Source: a virus. From it: a stretch of DNA of 35,251 bases. A program made the translations under genes and the position numbers. Every line of letters starts with the position of its first letter. Position 1 is the stretch's first letter. The stretch spans positions 137,719-172,969 of the IMG/VR virus record IMGVR_UViG_2757320370_000007, one strand, 5' to 3'. The notes under the pieces were generated by a model that was not told where the DNA came from, did no database searches, and saw only the letters and a program-made list of their open reading frames with translations. Of the stretch, positions 303 through 23,432 are shown piece by piece.

Positions 303-3300
303 ATGGCAAACCCATTGGCAATACTCATATCGGCTAAGCTAAATTCAGGTCTCGCACTGAAAGACCTTAACGCTTCAATTAGGGCATTAAGCAAGCATCC
401 TTCCCTCCAAAAAATTGATTTAAAACTTAATATAGATAAGTCATTTATAAATAACATCCAATCATTGTCAAAGAATCTTAATACTATTACCTCTCAGCTT
501 CAACAACAAAGTACGGCCAATAATGCTGTTAATAATAGCTCAAAGAACACTACTCAGAGCATCCAAGATCAAACAAAAGCCACAAATGAAGCTATTAAGG
601 CAGAACAAAAGTGGCAAATTGAACGCGAAAAAACCAACAGTAAGGGCATTCGTACCGTTACATCAGGGAATAACGTTGATAATTCTAAGCAAACTGTTAC
701 CTATTTACCAGATAATTCTATTAAGAATATTGATAATATCACAAATCAACTAAAGGACTATAAAGCACTTGAGGCATTGGATAGAGATCATTACAACGCA
801 CTCAAAACGAATCAATCTAGAATTGAAGCTATGGATAAACTTCATTATCTAGCACTTCAAAAGAATCGCGACCTAGATTGGAAGAATCTCCAGGCATCAA
901 ATAAACAAGCAGAAGCAACAGATAAGGCTCACTATCAAGCAATCAAAATGAACAATGATATGATTGCCAAGAATCAAAAACAAACTCAGTCATTAATCAA
1001 TTCCGCTTTCTCTGGTAAACAAAATACAAATAGCGCCTCTAGTGGCGTTGCTGAAGCCAAGGCTCTCGATATTCTCAATAGACAATACGATAAAGTATTG
1101 AGCAATCTTAATGCTGCTAAGAATAGTGGCAAGCAATTAACTGATAGTGAATTGACTGGGATTAATCGAAGAATAGAAGCTTTGAATAATTTAGCTTCGA
1201 GACAAAAAACAGTTGAAAAAGATCGTGCTACCCTCTCCTCTACTCAATTACGTACAGAGACCCAGATTAACAATCTGCTTTCGGGTAGGCATAAGGACAA
1301 GGTTGATTCAAGCCAATTGACAAGTTTGTTGGCGCAATTAAAAAGCTTAGACACTCAAACAGCCAATTTCAAGACTAAGTCAAAAGAAATTACCGATCAG
1401 ATTAATCGTATTGGTGCAGAGGCTAGAAATGCGTCTCCTAATGTCCAAGGACTAGGAAATATATTAAAAACGACCTTTAGCAGCATGCTTATGTATGCTG
1501 GTGTGGGTAGTTTGTTCTATGGTTCTATTAATGCTTTAAAACAGATGACGCAAACAATTATTGAAGTCGATTCGCAATTGACACAACTTAAGCGTGTTAT
1601 GGATGAAGATACTGACTTCGATAGCATGTTGACAAAAAATATAGGACTAGCTAATGAGTTAGGTAGAAGTATTAAAGAGGTAAACGAAAATGCGATTGGC
1701 TTTGCCAGAATGGGTTTTGATGAAAATCAAACTGTTGAGCTTGCTAAGACTGCAACTCTATTTCAAAACATATCTGATTTAACACCAACCGAGGCTGTTG
1801 ATACGCTAACGGCATCAATGACCGTATTTGGTGTTGAGGCTGGTAAAAGTATCGAAGTAGCGAATAAAATTAACGAAGTAGATAACAATTTCGCAGTAAG
1901 TTCGCAAGGTCTTGCATTGAGTATAAATAAATCTGCTTCAGCCGGAAAGACCTTTGGTGTTACTATCGATAAATTAATCGGAGACACAACAGCCATTACA
2001 ACAGCAACTAGAGAATCAGGAGCAGTGGTCGGTAAACTTGTTGCCGCTTAATCAAGTGATTGATTAATGAAAACTTTGCTATATCGGTGGAAGCGTTGGG
2101 GAACGTAATACCGAGGGAAGATATATTGTTATTAATATACGTTTTATAGATTGGACACTACTTAGATAGGAGATTAAATTGAAAATCACAGAACAAAAAA
2201 TATTGGTTAATTGGCATGGTAATACTAAACAACACTATGAAGAACTTGGGTATAAATTCACTAAATATGGGGATGTATTTGAGGCAAGTTTTATTGAGGT
2301 TCCCAAAAGTTCTAAGATCAAAGCAGATGTTAAATGTGATGTTTGTAGAAAAATTTATAAACTTCAAATTCATCAAATTAATAGAGCAGAGAATCATATA
2401 TGCTCTCAAGAATGTAAATATTTATTTGGTAAAACACTACTACATAGGTGCGGAATTTGTGATAAATCGTTTTACAGAAATAAAACTCAATGTGATAAAA
2501 GCGAAAGTGGTCTCTATTTCTGTTCAAATAAATGCGTTGGAGAATATAACAAAAGACAGAGGACACAGAACATCACTAAAAATTGTCTAATATGTAATAG
2601 TGAATTCAAAGTAAAAGCTAGTACATATGATAATCAGATCACTTGTTCAAGAAAATGTCAAGGTTTATGGCAGTCAAGAGAACGGATAGGTGAAAAATCA
2701 AGCAATTTTAGAGGCGGAAAAATCGAAAAGGAATGTTTTGAATGCAAAGATAAGTATTTCACTACCCGTCATGCATCGAAAACTAGCAAATTTTGTTCTC
2801 AGTTCTGCAAACAAAGATATTGGGCTAAAAACATTATAGTGAAAGAATCATTTAAAATTGCCAAATATAAAGGAAATGAAAAATACAGAATGACAAAAGG
2901 TGAAACTCTTCCTGAAAAAATGGTTAAAGAGTGGCTATTAAAAAACAATATTCCTTTTCTTCAGGAGCAGGGATTTTTCCATAAATACTACGCTGATTTC
3001 TATCTACCAAATACCAATATTATTGTTGAAGTTTTTGGAGACTATTGGCATACTAATCCAGATATATACGGAGATAATTTAATACAACCAAATGAGCATC
3101 AAATTGCTCAAGTAGAAAAAGATAGGATAAGAATTGAGACATTTAATAAATATGGATTCAAGGTCATAGTTCTTTGGGAACATGAAATTTATGAAAATAT
3201 TGAGAGTCTATTAAAAAGCAAAATAATAACAATATATCCCCGTAACGACTACACGCAGAGCATCTAGTATTTCTAGATGAAGATATAGTCTGATCTTGTG

Positions 3301-6300
3301 CCATAACCCAGATACAAAAAAGCACAGAGAGGCGGTCAAGTGTAAAGACACTTTAAAGGAGTACCGCCTCCGCTATACTTCTATTTGTAAGTATAGTCAG
3401 TAGGATCTGTCAATAAAGATCTGAAAGTAACAGGATGAACGCACTGAAAACAATCTATTCTCGCTTAACAACAATGAGTAAATCAGAATCAACCCTCGCA
3501 GCCGTTGGTATTAAAATGAGAGAACTGAATGGAGAAGTTAAAGATGCTCCGGTTATTCTCGATGAATTGGCCTCTAAGTGGGGAAGTCTATCTAAGGAAC
3601 AACAACAAAATACTGCTGTAAATTTGGCTGGCCGATTTCAGCTCTCCAGGTTCCTCGCGCTCATGCAGAATTACCAGATATCGGTAAATGCGACAGAAAC
3701 AGCTTTACATTCACAAGGGTCTGCCGTATCTGAAAACGAAAAATATATGCAATCACTTGAAGCCAGAATTCAAAAGATGAAAACAGCTTGGGATACACTT
3801 GCACTGGCTATGGGAAATGCAATTATTTCGGACTCGGTTGTGGTTATAACATCACTATTAACAAGCTTGGGGAATGTTCTCGCATCCACAGTGGAACACT
3901 TTGGTCTCCTCCCTGTCTTATTCGGTGTTTCTTATGCTGGATTAATGTTATTAAGCACTGGTTTTAGGATTTTTATAGTTAACATTACAACCACAATTGC
4001 CAGTCTTTTTGGTATGACTGCTGCTGCAAGTGGCGCAAGAATGGGACTAATGGGATTGTCTGCTTCCGCAAAACTTGCCGGAATAAGTTTAAAGAGTATG
4101 TTGATTAGTACTGGTGTTGGGGCAGCTCTTGTTGGTCTGGGTTGGATACTTGAGAAAGTTATAGGACATTTCGCGAAAACATCCGAAGTTGTTGATGAAG
4201 CAGGATCAAGTCTTGATCAACTTAAAGAGAAAACAGGAAATCTAAAAGAGCTTCAAGATTTGTCCAATGAATACAATGAATTAGCAAATAAAACGAATCT
4301 AACCACGCAAGAAAAAATTAGACTTGCTGGCGTTGAATCCGATCTAGCATCAAAACACGGCGTAACAATGAAAACTGTCGAGGATCAGACTGATGCTGTA
4401 CAGGCCAACACTGCCGCCATAGGCGATAGAATCGACAAATTAAAAGAAGAAGCAGCGATTGAGCAACAAAGAGCATTGGATGAGTACAAGGCCAATAAGA
4501 CACAGATAAATTCTGACATTCAAACTCAAGAATCAGCAAGAAAAACGGCTCAAGCAAAACTTGATGAATTAATAAAACAGCAGAAGTACATTGAAGACAG
4601 TGTTGCAAATAAAACCGTAATTAAAAACGACGCAGGGCAACTACCTTACACTCAGAACGCACTCCTTGAAATCGACCCCAATGACGCTAAAAACACAAAA
4701 AGAGCCATTGCGGATCTCAGTGAAGATATTGCTCAAGCAATTATCGATGCCAGAAAAACTTTAGAAACTGCTGGAACCGAACTTGACAAAGTAGTAAGTA
4801 AAAGAGAACAAGCATTTAAGGCCCAATTCTCTGCCTACGCCGACACCATCGAGGCTGGTGGTACTGAGGTTAAAGCGTCTACAAGAGTTCTTGCCGATGG
4901 GTTTGCGTCTATCGTTGCTACAGCAAAAACAGACGATCTAGAAGTATTAAATAAGTTTAAAACTGAATTGTTCAATACATTCCAAAAGACAGATGTAAAT
5001 TCGATGGATGATGCTGTTGCATCCCTTGAAAAAGTGGCTGGTGCTGCCGGACTAACAAAAGATCAATACAACATTCTCCAAGTTGCAATTAGTCAACTCA
5101 ATTTTCAAGGTGTAAATGATGGCGTCGAAGGAGTCGGTGACACCGCCGAAGATTCAAAAGACGAAATTATTTCTCTGACGGATGCTATGAAGGCACTGGA
5201 TGACACCATGAATGGAACGTCAGATGAGATGACTGCATTTGTAAAGTCTATCTCCGATTCATCTGATGAAATTGAACTTTTAACATCTGCTCAGAATGAA
5301 TTGAAAAAATCTAACAATCTTTCTACTTCTACTATTACCAAAATGAATGAAAAATACGGAGACTTTATAAAGGTTACTGGACTTAGTAAAGATAAGGTAT
5401 TAGAGTTCATTAAGTCTAAGAAGGATGAGAAAATAGCTGTTGTTAATGCTGAAATAGCTATGACAAAACAGGCTATTGATGGTGCTAAAAAACGGATTGA
5501 AGCAATGGAAATTGAAGTTGCTGCAATCAATAAAAAACGAAAAGCACTAGCTCAAGAAAGAATTGATTCTTTAAACGCCGGAGTTTCAGATGGAACCATT
5601 AGCGAATCGTTAGCTGAAAAACAGGTTGCTGCTATTTTGAGAAATGGTGATGATACCGTTCTCGATCTGTCTATTGAAAAGTCCGGTCTTGATGCATTGT
5701 CTGCAAAACTTAGCATCCTCAACTCTGTAAAAGAAGACTTTGTTACTGTAGCAAATAAAACAGAAAAATCAACAAAAGATTCCACCAAAGCCAATAACAC
5801 AAACTACGACTCAGTATCCAATACCGTAGAAATCCTCACTGATCTTCAGAAAGAACTCCTCGCTGTTGATGTTGCACAAAAGAAGCTCCAGAACTCTCAG
5901 GATAAACTCAAGGATGGCTCTAAGGAACGTCAGGAATCCATCAGCAAAGAGATATCCTTACTCAAGGAACAGAAGCGACTCTATGAAGAGGGTATTAAAG
6001 ATCCATCAAAGTTAGTTTCCACTAAAGTTACGACCACGGTTAAAACTAAAGCATCTGATTCCGACTCTACCGCCTCCACTAGCGCCATTGCTAATATGGT
6101 TGATGCTGCACGTAGCCTCCAAGGTAATTTCACCTACGGGCAAGTCGGGGGTAAGTTTAAGGGTACTTACGATCAATTTGTCGATGGAGCAGTATCGGAT
6201 TGCTCTCAGTTTATCCAAGAAATGTTTGATGAATTTCTTGATGTAAAAGTACCCCGCACAGCAGCAGAACAAGCCAAACAGGGTGTTGCTGTTTCTAAGG

Positions 6301-8936
6301 CGGATCTAAAGGCTGGGGATCTGGTATTCTTTAATACTACCGGGAAGGCAAATTCCCACGTTGGTATGTATACCGGAAACGGCAAGTTTATTCAAATGGG
6401 GAACAAGGGGCTTAGTGAGCAAGATTTAAATAGCAAGACATGGACACAGAAGTATAAATACGAAGGTGCTAGACGCGTTGCTTCTGATTCATCTTATACC
6501 CCTCTCTCCTCTTCCTCCGATGGTAAGTCTACGTCTAAAGTTGGTGGAAAAACTGTTAAAACTGACAACGCTACGGCAAAGGAAAAAGCTGATGCAAAAA
6601 CAGAGGCAGAAGACAAACTTGTTGCTCTAGATTCTCAGATCCACACTGCTTATATTAAGAGTCTGGATAACACTAAAACAGGGTTTGAACAGTTAATTGC
6701 CGACCAAGAGAGCGCAATTGAAGCATCTAAGAAAAAACAAGATACTCTTGATCCCAACTCTGCTGAATGGCGCAATGAGAACAATAAACAAATTAATTCT
6801 CAGAGCAAAATCCAATCGATCAAAAGTGATGAGAAGAATCAGCTCCAATACATGATGGATGCTTTAGGCGTTCAATTTGCTGATTATGACGCTTATTTAA
6901 AGAAATTGTCTTCAGATTGGTTGGATGTTCAGGCTGAAAAACTGTTTAAGGTGTATGCAAACATCACCTCTTCCATTGACTCATCGAAGCAACGCATTTC
7001 TGATCTTGGAAATGTAATTGATAGCTCCAAGAATAAGATGTCTCAGCTTGAAGAAGGATCATCTGACTATAACAAAGAACTGAATATTCAAATTGCCACT
7101 ACTAAGAAGCAAAAAACTGTTAATGATGAGTTGATTGTAAGTACGGAAAAACAACTAACAAATCAGAAGTTGAATGCTAAACAGAAATCCGACTTGAATA
7201 AAATACTAGATGAAGCCAAATTAGAAGATTATACTGCGAAGATTAAGGATTTAAACGCAGAGTTAATCAACTCTAAGTCTTATCCTCTAGAGAATGAATT
7301 GTCTGAATTGAATCATCAATTGGATCTCTCAGAAGCAAAGATGAAGGGTTATGTAGAAGGATCGGAAGAGTATAATCAAGCAATTAAAGATCAGGTTTCT
7401 ATTCTTAGTGATAAGATTTCGGTTACCAAAAAACTTATCGACTATGAGGAAACCCAGTCGAGAAATGAAGAATTAACAGCATCGGCTAGAGAAGAACATA
7501 GAAACAAACTTAGAGAATATACTCTGAGTCTTTATGAATACTCGGATGCGGTTAAATCACTTCGAGAAGATTATGCTGATAAAATAATTGAGAATTATAA
7601 AAAGTTACTTCAAGAACAGCAAAAAATCCAGAAAGATGCATATGAAAAAGAAAAAGAATTAGAAAATGAACGCCACGAAACCAGAATTAATAATCTAGAG
7701 TCTGAGTATCAGGCGTTCGAGAATAATATTAATGCTCAGTCTAAAAGTTTAGATCGAGAAGTTTCTGAAGATGATTATAAGAAACAATTAGCTATACTAC
7801 AAAAAGAAAAGGCAGAACTTGATGCTAAGTTTAGTAGTAAGCTATTAGATGATTCCCTTGAAGCCAAAGCACAGCGCGTCGACATCCAAAAAGAGATTGA
7901 TGCCAAAGCAGAAGAAATCACAAAACTCCAACGCGATAGAGAAATAACTATTCGCAAGGATGGTTTGTCAGATCAACTTGAGGATCGTAAGAATGCTGTT
8001 GATAAAGAGAAAAAGCTTGAAGATGATAAGAATAAATCGTTCATCAGGAATATTGATAGTCTCATAAAGATTAATGACGATTATTATAATGGCCTACTCA
8101 ATGACGAACAGTATTTTTATAATATGAAGCAATCCCTAATGAGTGGCGACACCGTTAGAATACAGAATGAGTTAGGCATTGTTCAGGCTGCTTATACAAA
8201 TTTTTATCAGGAGTTAGAAAAAAACTCTAAATTATACGCTGATAAGATTTCTTCTAATCTTAAATATGCGATGAGTGTTGATGAAAAATATGCTCAAAAC
8301 TATCCCCTAGCAGACAAAAGCAACAATGATACGGGTACTGGATCAGGCATTGAATCGGGCAATGGGAATACCAACCCTGTAACTGGCGGCAGATCAGAAA
8401 AACAGACCGCTTGGGATAGTTATCTCTCTAACAAACAAAAAGCAGAACAGCTTAAGGCTGATATGCGTACTTTAATAAAAAATTCTGCTGATTATAAAAA
8501 TAAACAGGCTCAATTTGAATCATTAAATAGCACAAATGTCGGATATCGTACTAAATATGGGTTCCCTGATGGCTCATACGAGGAATTAAAGAATAAGGTG
8601 TTTTCTGCAAAAATGGGCGGTATGACCCCCGCTGGTATGCCAGATGAAGGTCAATTCCTACTCGCGCATGAAAAAGAGCTTGTATTGGATAAATTCGATA
8701 CCTCTAAATTATTAAAGATAATTAATATTTCGAGAGATGTTTTCAGTAGTTTGGGTAACAATATTGCCAATATTCTTCCGCAGGGTATATTCAACAATAA
8801 CGTCAAAACACCACAAGCAATTGACAATAGTTTAAGCATTCGTATTGACAATATTAAGGGAGACAAGGAAGGAGCCAAGATCGTCACCGACAGCATTGAG
8901 GAACTGTGGAATAAAAAAACAAAACAAGGATGGTAA
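303..8936 (+). CDS. Tail tape measure protein (SPbeta YomI/CwlP-like), join(303..2033,3438..8936), 2409 aa after splicing, with internal NlpC/P60 peptidoglycan peptidase
   Basis: TP901-type core (IIEVDSQLTQLKRVM...NKINEVDNNFAVS...ATRESGAVVG) continues in frame as NALKTIYSRL once the intron is removed. Hydrophobic segments, long coiled coils, C-terminal LAHEKELVL motif. Confidence 0.93.
2034..3437 (+). mobile_element. Group I intron (1404 nt) in the TMP gene, with homing endonuclease ORF in P6
   Basis: Exon ends in U (GGT, 2033); intron ends in G (3437). P1 CGGU/GCCG with U.G at 2043. P10 UGUU/AACG. P2 TTAATCAA-gtga-TTGATTAA. P3 CTTTGC/GCAGAG. P4 TCGGT/ACCGA. P6a GATATATTGTTATT/AATAACAATATATC. 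P7 AcGACTA/TAGTCT with J8/7 GAAGATA. P8 CATCTAG/CTAGATG. P9 hairpins at 3293-3430. Confidence 0.95.
2179..3267 (+). CDS. Intron-encoded homing endonuclease: CxxC...CSxxC zinc-finger repeats plus C-terminal Vsr/DUF559-like (EDxHD-type) nuclease
   Basis: AGGAG RBS and TTG start; four CxxC-(n)-CSxxC units; TLPEKMV...YADFYLP...VEVFGDYWH...EKD...IVLWEHEI nuclease signature; lies inside the P6 loop. Confidence 0.85.
   Translation: MKITEQKILVNWHGNTKQHYEELGYKFTKYGDVFEASFIEVPKSSKIKADVKCDVCRKIYKLQIHQINRAENHICSQECKYLFGKTLLHRCGICDKSFYRNKTQCDKSESGLYFCSNKCVGEYNKRQRTQNITKNCLICNSEFKVKASTYDNQITCSRKCQGLWQSRERIGEKSSNFRGGKIEKECFECKDKYFTTRHASKTSKFCSQFCKQRYWAKNIIVKESFKIAKYKGNEKYRMTKGETLPEKMVKEWLLKNNIPFLQEQGFFHKYYADFYLPNTNIIVEVFGDYWHTNPDIYGDNLIQPNEHQIAQVEKDRIRIETFNKYGFKVIVLWEHEIYENIESLLKSKIITIYPRNDYTQSI
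6084..6479 (+). other. NlpC/P60 cysteine peptidase domain within the TMP
   Basis: DCSQF...PRTAAEQ...LKAGDLVFF...HVGMYTGNGKFI...ARRV, flanked by Ser/Thr/Lys-rich linkers. Confidence 0.9.
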
Positions 8937-21828: not shown

Positions 21829-22718
21829 ATGGCGAATCCTGTGATAATTTGGATGAACGCAACAAATTCGGCACCAGTCACAACACCATTCAATTTTGGG
21901 GTAATCGATGCAGATGATGTGTCCGATCCACATACTTTTAATATTTGGAATAATAAAGGCGGAGCAACCGATGTATCAAAAATGGAAGATTGCACAATCA
22001 CAACTCGTGATATGTCCGGTGGACTTGGTAACACGGTGGGAAGTGAGATTGAGGTAGTTAAGAACAACTGGTTCCATGTACAAGTAGACTCTATGGGCGA
22101 GACCGATCTAGCTCAAGAGTCTTCACGTATTGGTAAAGATTATACCAAACCTCTTGGTACGACTGGCACTACAAAGAAGGATAATACTGGTGCATCATAT
22201 CCAACTCCACTCAAACCAGGAGCGAAAGAAATTTTAGGAGTTAGAAATAATGGTATTGCTCTTGATGCTGCTGGTAACTTCGTTACAGTCACTCTTCAGG
22301 CAGATGTACCACTGGAAGCTAAGAGTGGACAACAAGCGTTCAAAATTCGGGTTAACTTTGTAAAACTGGCCCCCTATATCGGTAACGATGTGGCGTAAAT
22401 TCTTTAAATTGCTGGAACCCCCTAAAGATTTTCATACTACAACGTGACTGGTAACGGTGAGCGTGAACGTGGTCGAAAGACGGAAAAAAATGAAAATATG
22501 GTCTATGCTGAAATAAAAGCCATACTTACTTAGATGGTGCTAAGGACTTCTAATGGGAAATCGTAGCAGGGAAATCTCTTGTTTAAGAGAGACCTTCAAC
22601 GAGCGTAATAGGAATATCCCTGTGGGATAATGGTGCGCTCTACTCCGACTCAGACAATATGAGTGTAAATATCTCGAAAGAGACGGTATTCATAATAAGC
22701 AGTTATCGTTACGTTTAA
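21829..22718 (+). CDS. Putative virion structural protein, join(21829..22352,22700..22718), 180 aa ending FKIRVSYRYV
   Basis: AAGGAG RBS; beta-rich protein. Removing the intron joins CGG GT|C AGT TAT CGT TAC GTT TAA. A terminator follows exon 2. Confidence 0.82.
22353..22699 (+). ncRNA. ORF-less group I intron (347 nt)
   Basis: IGS AACTG-G-CCC (22364-22372) pairs with 5' exon GGGU (U.G) and 3' exon CAGUU (P10). P2 with GUAA loop. P element AAATTGCTGGAA, Q element TAGCAGG. P3 ATTCTT/AGGAAT. P6a TCTCTT/AAGAGA. P7 AcGAGCG/CGCTCT. P8 TATCCC/GGGATA. P9 TCTC-gaaa-GAGA. Terminal G at 22699. Confidence 0.9.
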
Positions 22719-22743
22719 AAGATAAAAGTATTAAGTACATACT

Positions 22744-22774
22744 AAAGAGGCACGTTTATTTGTGTCTCTTTTTT
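22744..22774 (+). terminator. Rho-independent terminator
   Basis: AAAGAGGCAC...GTGTCTCTTT followed by Ts. Confidence 0.75.
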
Positions 22775-22811
22775 GTTTTTATAAACTCACAATACAATGT
22801 GGAGGGATTTT

Positions 22812-23432
22812 ATGATTTTAGGAAACCAACATTACAGGTATTCGCCTGTCAAAGAAGCTCAAGATTGGGTATGGATTGCGGAATACGCAGATGGATCTCA
22901 TCTACCAGAATATAATTTTGATAACAGAATAAAGAATGACTATTACTCAATTGATAGAAATCAGCTCATCAGATTTGGGCTTATCGGTATGGGATCTCAA
23001 ATTTATTTTGATGTTGCTAACGGAATTTTTAATATTAATAAGAATCGAATTCAGATGTCCTACATTGCAAATGGTATTGAGTACCCTCTTACAGGTAGAA
23101 CATATTTATATAATGATATCATTCAACAAAAAGTTGCTATTGGAGATGGAAAACTTTTATCTAAAACAGCAAGCGGAAGAATTAAAGGACATATTATTGC
23201 ACATTTAATTGGCTACAAAAAGAAAATGGAATTAGATGAAGTTAATATCAATTTTCAAAATATTCTTTACATCCCTCAGAATGAGCAGCCCTCTTACCTA
23301 GAAGTGAAAATATCGGCAGATAAGGATTTAGATGGTGAATTGGTAATTAGAGTAAATGGATTTGTAGCCAATAGGATACATGCCCCGTTACTCAAAAATC
23401 GTTCAGGAATATACAATTGGGAACTTTTATAA
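22812..23432 (+). CDS. Hypothetical phage protein in the tail module
   Basis: GGAGG RBS before ATG 22812; ~206-aa ORF. Confidence 0.75.
   Translation: MILGNQHYRYSPVKEAQDWVWIAEYADGSHLPEYNFDNRIKNDYYSIDRNQLIRFGLIGMGSQIYFDVANGIFNINKNRIQMSYIANGIEYPLTGRTYLYNDIIQQKVAIGDGKLLSKTASGRIKGHIIAHLIGYKKKMELDEVNINFQNILYIPQNEQPSYLEVKISADKDLDGELVIRVNGFVANRIHAPLLKNRSGIYNWELL

Follow-up and report, generated by a model that had tools for sequence, protein, structure and literature searches.

A small group I intron very probably splits codon 175 of a tail-module gene in an SPbeta-like prophage

What fills the 398 bp that separate a 189-amino-acid (aa) open reading frame (ORF) from the next gene of a prophage tail module, and which C-terminus belongs to the protein encoded there? 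The locus lies in positions 137,719 to 172,969 of the IMG/VR virus record IMGVR_UViG_2757320370_000007; this stretch of 35,251 nucleotides (nt), called the window below, corresponds to 4161557-4196807 of an 8.54-Mb genome. The ORF occupies 21829-22398 (+) and ends in RVNFVKLAPYIGNDVA, the following gene starts at 22797, and no ORF of 30 aa or more is found on either strand of 22399-22699. A sequence-only reading of this DNA had placed a complete ORF-less group I ribozyme in the apparent gap, and the Rfam family RF00028, orthologous copies and covariation agree with it. We consider it very probable that 22353-22699 (+) is a functional, self-splicing group I intron without an ORF, which, with exactly these splice sites, lies inside codon 175 of a 180-codon tail-module gene. 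The spliced product, the orthologous copies and the RNA structure are three independent lines of sequence evidence, and together they make a strong case for the intron. The gene is composed as follows.

21829..22352 (+): exon 1, codons 1-174 and the bases GU of Val175 (ORF list, PHROG match, homologue alignments)
22353..22699 (+): very probable group I intron without an ORF, 347 nt (RF00028, same-site orthologues, phage relatives, covariation)
22700..22718 (+): coding part of exon 2, third base of Val175, Ser-Tyr-Arg-Tyr-Val and UAA; restores the C-terminus of the family
22744..22781 (+): intrinsic-terminator-like element, 25 nt past the exon-2 stop; hairpin of 11 pairs and a T run at 22744-22771

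Joining position 22352 to 22700 gives ...KIRVSYRYV-stop, a protein of 180 aa with 19 coding nt past the junction, stop included. The predicted spliced junction is ...AUUCGGGU + CAGUUAUCG (also written as ...ATTCGGGT followed by CAGTTATCG), and the unspliced reading ends in ...NFVKLAPYIGNDVA. Both translations, 180 aa with the end RVSYRYV and 189 aa without splicing, had been given in the sequence-only reading, and it is the spliced end that is conserved. The 19 nt are the coding part of exon 2 only; the 3' exon as RNA extends at least to the terminator (about 80 nt), which had been placed, correctly, directly past exon 2.

Homologues of the protein were found by tblastn in Brevibacillus phages Sundance, Jenst and SecTim467, Bacillus phages G, SP-15 and EZ-2018a, and Listeria phage LIS04. 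The genes of Sundance, G, Jenst, SP-15, LIS04 and EZ-2018a are uninterrupted and their products end in RVSY(R/Q)(Y/F)x; the closest phage homologue, that of Sundance (63% identity), ends in FKLRVSYRYV. The set of 76 database homologues stems almost wholly from Paenibacillus; about 60 of them have the C-terminus R(V/I)SYR(Y/F)V, and most of these are exactly 180 aa long, so that the comparison of homologues proposed beforehand came out in favour of the spliced form. An intron is missing from the nearest relative, P0004 (87% identical), whose gene ends in ...CGT GTC AGC TAC CGT TAC GTT TAA; across the insertion site the intron-less allele runs ...CGTGTCAGCTAC.... Ends resembling NFVKLAPY, the outcome named beforehand as speaking against splicing, occur only in intron-bearing alleles, each of which has a mini-exon downstream. 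With the intron only 15 coding bases ahead of the end of the gene, gene callers give the protein a wrong tail: in public records P0002 (186 aa), P0009, P0011, P0023, P0034, P0045 and P0059, read-through tails replace SYRYV because the intron was not recognised, and one such record is a 186-aa "hypothetical protein" of Paenibacillus tianjinensis. An annotation based on ORFs alone does miss the intron, as had been foreseen.

The same interruption is found elsewhere. Seven further protein clusters are interrupted at this codon and run on into tails that begin with N, and an intron followed by a mini-exon was verified in six of them. We compared the DNA of these six loci (L021-L026), which together with the window make seven same-site copies. 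In L021-L026, inserts of 327-348 nt follow GG(G/A)U and end in G, and past every insert lies a mini-exon encoding SYR(Y/F)(V/I)-stop. Codons of the mini-exon vary (Ser AGU/UCU/UCA, Arg CGU/CGC/AGA, Tyr UAU/UAC) and the peptide is kept; its only changes are Y to F once and V to I once, both of which also occur in intron-less homologues. On this codon pattern, the mini-exon is under purifying selection for translation in frame with exon 1, which in turn would require splicing.

The fold from P1 to P10 was drawn by hand on the window sequence. Pairs were then counted on a MAFFT alignment of the seven copies, with 3' partners slid by 1-3 columns and 500 shuffles as controls. The elements of the fold, with the pairing counts, are listed below.

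22349-22352 / 22369-22372 (+): P1, exon GGGU with guide GCCC, wobble U22352-G22369; paired in 7/7 copies
22364-22372 (+): guide AACUG-G-CCC, the P10 guide AACUG (22364-68) lying inside the P1 loop
22374..22393 (+): P2, a GUAA-capped hairpin of 8 bp; all cells paired (100%), double changes at 3 pairs
22396..22398 (+): in-frame UAA, 44-46 nt into the intron and immediately 5' of P3; ends the unspliced 189-aa reading
22399-22404 (AUUCUU) / 22610-22615 (AGGAAU) (+): P3; 100% paired, 3/6 pairs changed on both sides
22410-15 / 22561-62 + 22565-68 (+): P4, encloses P5 (P4-P5 domain 22410..22568)
22420-22 / 22555-57 (+): P5, bears an extension of about 130 nt
22428-35 / 22490-97 (+): P5a; 7/8 pairs changed on both sides
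22443-63 and 22470-83 (+): two GNRA-capped hairpins in the P5 extension
22484-89 (+): A-rich strand in the P5 extension
22501-04 / 22544-47 (+): P5d; 100% paired, 3/4 pairs changed on both sides
22504-08 / 22539-44 (+): motif UAUGC/GCUAAG, similar to an 11-nt receptor, in the P5 extension
22519-23 / 22534-38 (+): P5e, in the P5 extension
22569..22594 (+): P6 (GG/CC) and P6a (UCUCUU/AAGAGA); about 91-93% paired, 5 pairs changed on both sides
22601-06 (GAGCGU) / 22635-40 (GCGCUC) (+): P7, the guanosine-binding helix; 100% paired, encloses the P3 3' strand, P8 and J8/7
22616-28 (+): P8, inside P7
22629-34 (+): J8/7, inside P7
22645..22686 (+): P9 three-way junction of P9 (CCG/CGG), P9a and P9b; 93-100% paired, 5 pairs changed on both sides
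22648-52 / 22660-64 (+): P9a, arm of the P9 junction
22672-83 (+): P9b, with an invariant GAAA loop (22676-79)
22699 (+): omega-G, the terminal guanosine; G in 7/7 copies, directly 5' of the mini-exon

The features that characterise a group I intron are present, namely a P3/P7 pseudoknot core, a U-G wobble at the 5' splice site, an omega-G and a reading frame restored by ligation. The guide AACUG-G-CCC pairs with both exons in the window, as had been read from the sequence: GCCC pairs with the end of exon 1 in P1, and AACUG (22364-68) with CAGUU (22700-22704), directly past G22699, in P10. The splice sites, 22352/22353 and 22699/22700, are those that had been predicted.

Over the 94 hand-assigned pairs, 93.1% of cells are paired versus 35-49% in the slid controls, and 43 of the 94 pairs have changed on both sides versus 5-9 in those controls, a count reached by 0/500 shuffles. 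In P3, P7 and P8, pairing reaches 91-100% and the pairs with double changes number 3, 3 and 4, respectively; the P5b hairpin is 98% paired (4/7 pairs changed on both sides). Exon and guide also covary: in L024, whose protein has Ile in place of Val, P1 is GGAU/GUCC instead of GGGU/GCCC, and the U-G wobble of P1 is present in 7/7 copies. P7 exists in four versions, GACUAU/AUAGUC, GACUGU/ACAGUC, GACCAU/AUGGUC and GAGCGU/GCGCUC, the last in the window and L021. G22601-C22640 and A22602-U22639 are invariant in the seven copies, and the following three pairs covary. In known group I introns the first two P7 pairs include the guanosine-binding G-C pair; this pair is present here, and guanosine binding is predicted from it.

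The helices P7.1 and P7.2, located between P7 and the 3' strand of P3, are the mark of subgroup IA2 (the T4 td / Twort type). Here only 3 nt (AAU, 22607-09) separate P7 from that strand, and P7.1/P7.2 are therefore absent, which does not fit IA2; the large peripheral element is the P5 extension in their place. The GAAA loop of P9b may dock on the motif resembling an 11-nt GAAA receptor, which makes this a candidate tertiary contact.

Several observations weigh against a functional intron at this site. RF00028 matches over the full length of its model (positions 1-253) at 22343-22686, yet the score in a 651-nt search (22200-22850) is 24.1 bits (E 5.7e-4), under the gathering threshold of 50, and taken alone such a match is weak. 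P7 of the window departs from the consensus sequence, though it is fully compensated and its first two pairs are invariant. The minimum-free-energy fold of 22340-22720 is undistinctive (z -1.27) and does not recover the pseudoknotted core. Five of the seven copies have a P10 of only 2 bp, against 5 bp for the window and an offset 6 bp for L022; guide pairing to exon 2 is thus not a conserved feature. Finally, drawing the structure on the window sequence and testing it on a MAFFT alignment of related sequences inflates the percentage of cells paired, but not the count of double changes set against slid controls.

The low Rfam score has a plausible explanation. Rfam treats P7 as unpaired consensus sequence, since the P3/P7 pseudoknot cannot be represented. 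With RF00028, three same-site orthologues pass the cut-off of 50 (66.3, 56.8 and 53.0 bits) and three fall short of it (46.4, 43.7 and 29.1 bits); the window and L021, which alone carry the divergent P7, are the two lowest scorers (24.1 and 29.1 bits), so that the shortfall of the window fits its divergent, compensated P7. Scans of the entire 35-kb window with Rfam, both at the gathering threshold and with E up to 1, reported neither this intron nor a second group I intron described below, and both appear only when short sub-regions are scanned. As our match emerged only in the 651-nt scan, blank scans of the entire window are uninformative about group I introns. On the side of sequence similarity, megablast against phages gave a sole match of 71 nt, to the polB intron of BpSp, and blastn in distant mode found the P3-P6 region of the intron in 96 phage records, with E down to 2e-29.

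By analogy with the group I family, whose standard pathway we take for the splicing chemistry, the late transcript of the tail operon would fold into a group I core of P1-P9. Free guanosine bound in P7 would attack after U22352, held in P1 by the guide GCCC with its U-G wobble. The freed end of exon 1 would then attack after omega-G22699, with P10 (CAGUU/AACUG) aligning exon 2. The ligated mRNA (...KIRV-SYRYV-stop) would complete the last beta-strand of the protein, a beta-sandwich conserved across this group of phages, and a transcript translated before splicing would stop at the UAA 44-46 nt into the intron and yield the 189-aa product.

Could both proteins be made on purpose? The sequence-only reading had proposed that near-full-length isoforms of 180 and 189 aa could both be made, differing only in the last predicted beta-strand, which could act as an assembly switch; splicing would then be partial by design, with the isoform ratio as the switch. 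The junction does fall inside the last predicted strand, NFVK of the window resembles SYRY in its pattern, and AlphaFold keeps the strand, with moderate confidence, in the longer form (through NFVK; mean predicted local distance difference test score, pLDDT, 87 over residues 171-180, with 181-189 disordered). Moreover, exon-1 products can arise by translation of unspliced phage pre-mRNAs, as is reported for T4 td. Structure prediction for the two forms, suggested as a check, gave similar folds and neither helps nor hurts the idea. What speaks against it is the tails themselves. In the seven other clusters they are N, NC, NLDSPLYQ, NNMAPYIGNDVA, NKMAPYTSNGVAKIL, NDIAPYIGNSVAKIL and NTIAPYTGNSVAQILKIA, that is 1-18 residues with no conserved sequence or length, two of them only N or NC, and in the six orthologue loci a stop is reached after 2 to 19 intron codons. 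The shared pattern APY...GN.VA is nothing but the translated 3' strand of P1 followed by P2, and differences between tails track compensatory changes in P1 and P2 (for example, AUC GGU AAC GAU to ACC AGU AAU GGU in P2, non-synonymous at three codons). To judge by these changes, the read-through stretch evolves as RNA and not as protein. Most relatives, the sister allele P0004 included, have no intron and make only the 180-aa form, so a switch would be dispensable. We therefore regard a deliberate switch as very improbable, and this part of the earlier proposal found no support. The 189-aa product is read here as a by-product, not a designed isoform, although a minor second form translated from pre-mRNA before splicing is possible. 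That the intron is retained at this unusual site because the efficiency of splicing is useful there, setting the ratio of complete to C-terminally altered tail protein or, when the prophage is induced, gating its supply through the conditions under which the RNA folds (GTP, Mg2+, coupling to translation), is an equally slim prospect.

A decayed intron that no longer splices, with the 189-aa ORF as the product (or a dead gene) and the SYRYV codons as a relic, seems slightly less probable still. The Rfam score under the cut-off, the P7 sequence off consensus and the lack of a homing endonuclease gene within the intron could be taken as signs of decay. On the other hand, the window has lost none of its core helices, nor the U-G wobble or omega-G, and its P7 differs by three exact compensations, which are also present in L021. 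Frame, peptide and stop of the mini-exon are kept in 7/7 copies despite intron identities of 63-90% and many synonymous changes, which is unlike a relic. Finally, a structured RNA other than an intron (a small RNA, a riboswitch or another element of the 3' untranslated region) that resembles a group I intron would explain why scans of the entire window give no match at the gathering threshold, but it is effectively refuted by the full-length RF00028 match with no other credible family, by orthologues that pass the RF00028 cut-off, and by relatives that interrupt conserved genes, together with the conserved frame of exon 2.

The functional intron remains our reading, and the gene that carries it belongs to the tail module of an SPbeta-like prophage region, whose host is probably a Paenibacillus, as the names of homologues suggest. 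SPbeta YomI and the tape measure protein share 48% identity, and YOMG_N, YomF_N and Dit-like domains are found on neighbouring genes. The interrupted gene itself belongs to phrog_11814 (E 9e-64 over residues 1-177); the PHROG profile has 174 positions and the match of the ORF stops at position 171 (residue 177), leaving room for the spliced ending. The protein has no Pfam match and its PHROG has no assigned function. AlphaFold models an intron-less homologue as a beta-sandwich (pLDDT 96.8) with KIRVSYR as the final strand, which puts the splice junction in mid-strand. Foldseek found nothing in the PDB at E 1e-3 or better for the host protein (FimA-type pilins came first, with TM about 0.36), VIA-align gave Z of at most 6.6 (TLP-1b, WxLIP, TasA and PapD-like domains), a range that the tool describes as a common arrangement, and a search of BFVD returned its own family alone. 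As the structure searches gave no convincing relative, we call it a beta-sandwich tail-module protein, on the strength of the model, and nothing more specific. A "donor-strand" reading of the last strand, prompted by the pilin and TasA look-alikes, was dropped because the scores were too low.

How did the intron come to this site? On a maximum-likelihood tree of 62 homologues (fragments and rows of partial coverage, 14 ids, were left out), the seven intron-bearing rows need seven state changes, of which well-supported branches force at least 6, and the intron label is no more clustered than shuffled labels. The window allele is sister to the intron-less P0004 (support 99/92), and the host gene of L021 is 86% identical to that of the window. 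Intron identity tracks host-gene identity (Spearman 0.82 over 21 non-independent pairs). The intron is present in 2/116 species genomes of the genus, and BLAST found no further copy of it in the same genome. These patterns fit long residence with repeated precise loss, local re-acquisition by recombination, or both, better than a recent spread of a single copy.

No homing endonuclease is encoded within the intron, as seen from the lack of ORFs of at least 30 aa in 22399-22699 and from the length of all 7 copies, 327-348 nt. A separate ORF of 370-403 aa lies past the mini-exon in L022 (2453-3573) and L024 (2444-3531), with a DUF2726 nuclease-like domain, zinc-ribbon and treble-clef motifs and a CapR-like domain. 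This ORF may encode a free-standing homing endonuclease that acts together with the ORF-less intron. No significant similarity between it and the DUF559 ORF of the second intron of the window was found by BLASTP. At a locus with an intron-less allele (L027, Paenibacillus sp.), we also observed a "skipping-rope" RNA (RF02924, 152-231, 38.1 bits versus a gathering threshold of 36.7) upstream of YonK/YonJ-like genes.

The second group I intron of the window splits the tape measure gene at 2034-3437 (+) and is 1404 nt long. Positions 3-135 of PF10145 end ORF 303-2051 at residue 577, positions 136-201 begin at residue 2 of ORF 3435-8936, and SPbeta YomI is continuous across the site (ESGNIVGNSLKTIF, versus ESGAVVG and NALKTIY on the two sides in the window). 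Its P1 is CGGU/GCCG, its P10 is AAC/GUU, its omega-G coincides with the last base of the apparent ATG at 3435-3437, and it scores 29.7 bits with RF00028 at 3149-3312. It shares with the 347-nt intron the prophage, the tail module, the P1/P10 layout and the terminal G, but it is longer, has a consensus P7 and contains ORF 2179-3267 for a 362-aa DUF559 (Vsr-like) protein; blastn detects no similarity between the two introns. In Staphylococcus phage Terranova (MH542234, L015), tandem RF00028 matches at 542-871 (26.6 bits) and 938-1229 (48.0 bits) lie directly 3' of the annotated 122-aa tail tube gene, with no coding sequence annotated up to a terminator, and the annotated C-terminus of this tail tube protein may be cut short by introns.

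Among more distant relatives (RF00028 scores of 39-87 bits, maximum 87.5), introns lie between split halves of genes for ribonucleotide reductase (RNR; Enterococcus phiM1EF22, Brochothrix A9), B-family DNA polymerase (Bacillus BpSp), DNA polymerase III alpha (Lactococcus AM1), RNA polymerase beta (Shewanella FishSpeaker) and tape measure protein (Thomasclavelia phages). The RNR and polymerase-gene introns of Firmicute and jumbo phages are 68-77% identical to ours over P3-P6, with up to 82% of the intron covered, and share its conserved P4-P5 extension with GNRA hairpins. Introns of Enterococcus, Lactococcus, Shewanella and other phages match the P4-P5 domain with 70-77% identity, and compensation is visible in it (hairpins ACUG-GUAA-CGGU, AUCC-GCAA-GGAU and GCAA-GUGA-UUGC). 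The window intron differs from the RNR and polymerase introns in its host, a tail-module gene, in its site 15 coding nt before the stop and in its P7 off consensus, and an additional insert that follows the P7 5' strand in the BpSp and A9 introns has no counterpart in it. To our knowledge, so short a terminal coding exon has not been reported, the exon sizes of mycobacteriophage BAKA being left out of this comparison.

Introns in virion genes have been described before. In mycobacteriophage BAKA, the minor tail gene contains an ORF-less group I intron whose splicing was shown by reverse transcription PCR, capsid-gene introns are present in LittleE and Tuc2009, and Cluster J mycobacteriophages have group I introns in capsid and minor tail genes (PMC3706429). 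Those of BAKA, LittleE and Tuc2009 resemble ours in being small, without an endonuclease gene and in a virion or tail gene, with an exon 1 ending in U, an intron ending in G and a patchy presence among close relatives (PMC3706429). They differ in host phylum and gene, and the likeness drawn here is one of layout. In Bastillevirinae phages, group I introns have been reported in DNA polymerase, terminase, thymidylate synthase and RNR genes, and none in a tail gene; most carry an endonuclease ORF, and the ORF-less ribozyme parts average about 350 nt (PMC11878797). Like ours, they are carried by Bacillus-group phages, in which such introns are many, and some have a Vsr-type endonuclease, as does our tape measure intron (PMC11878797).

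Group I introns in phage virion genes are thus already documented, and our understanding of how such introns work is not changed by this one. What is particular here is the position of the intron, 15 coding nt ahead of the stop, an Rfam score under the threshold together with a compensated P7, and the wrong C-termini in public records. The C-terminus of the family is wrong in these records wherever the intron is present, in eight protein clusters that include one RefSeq-type genome entry. Pipelines based on Rfam thresholds will miss the window intron, since the compensated P7 changes halve its score. The seven same-site copies, together with intron-less sister alleles, form a natural set for studying group I covariation, between exon and guide included, and the persistence of ORF-less introns. 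Finally, a tail-module gene of an SPbeta-like prophage is added to the phage genes that depend on RNA self-splicing, and, with the tape measure intron, assembly of the tail of this prophage would need two splicing events.

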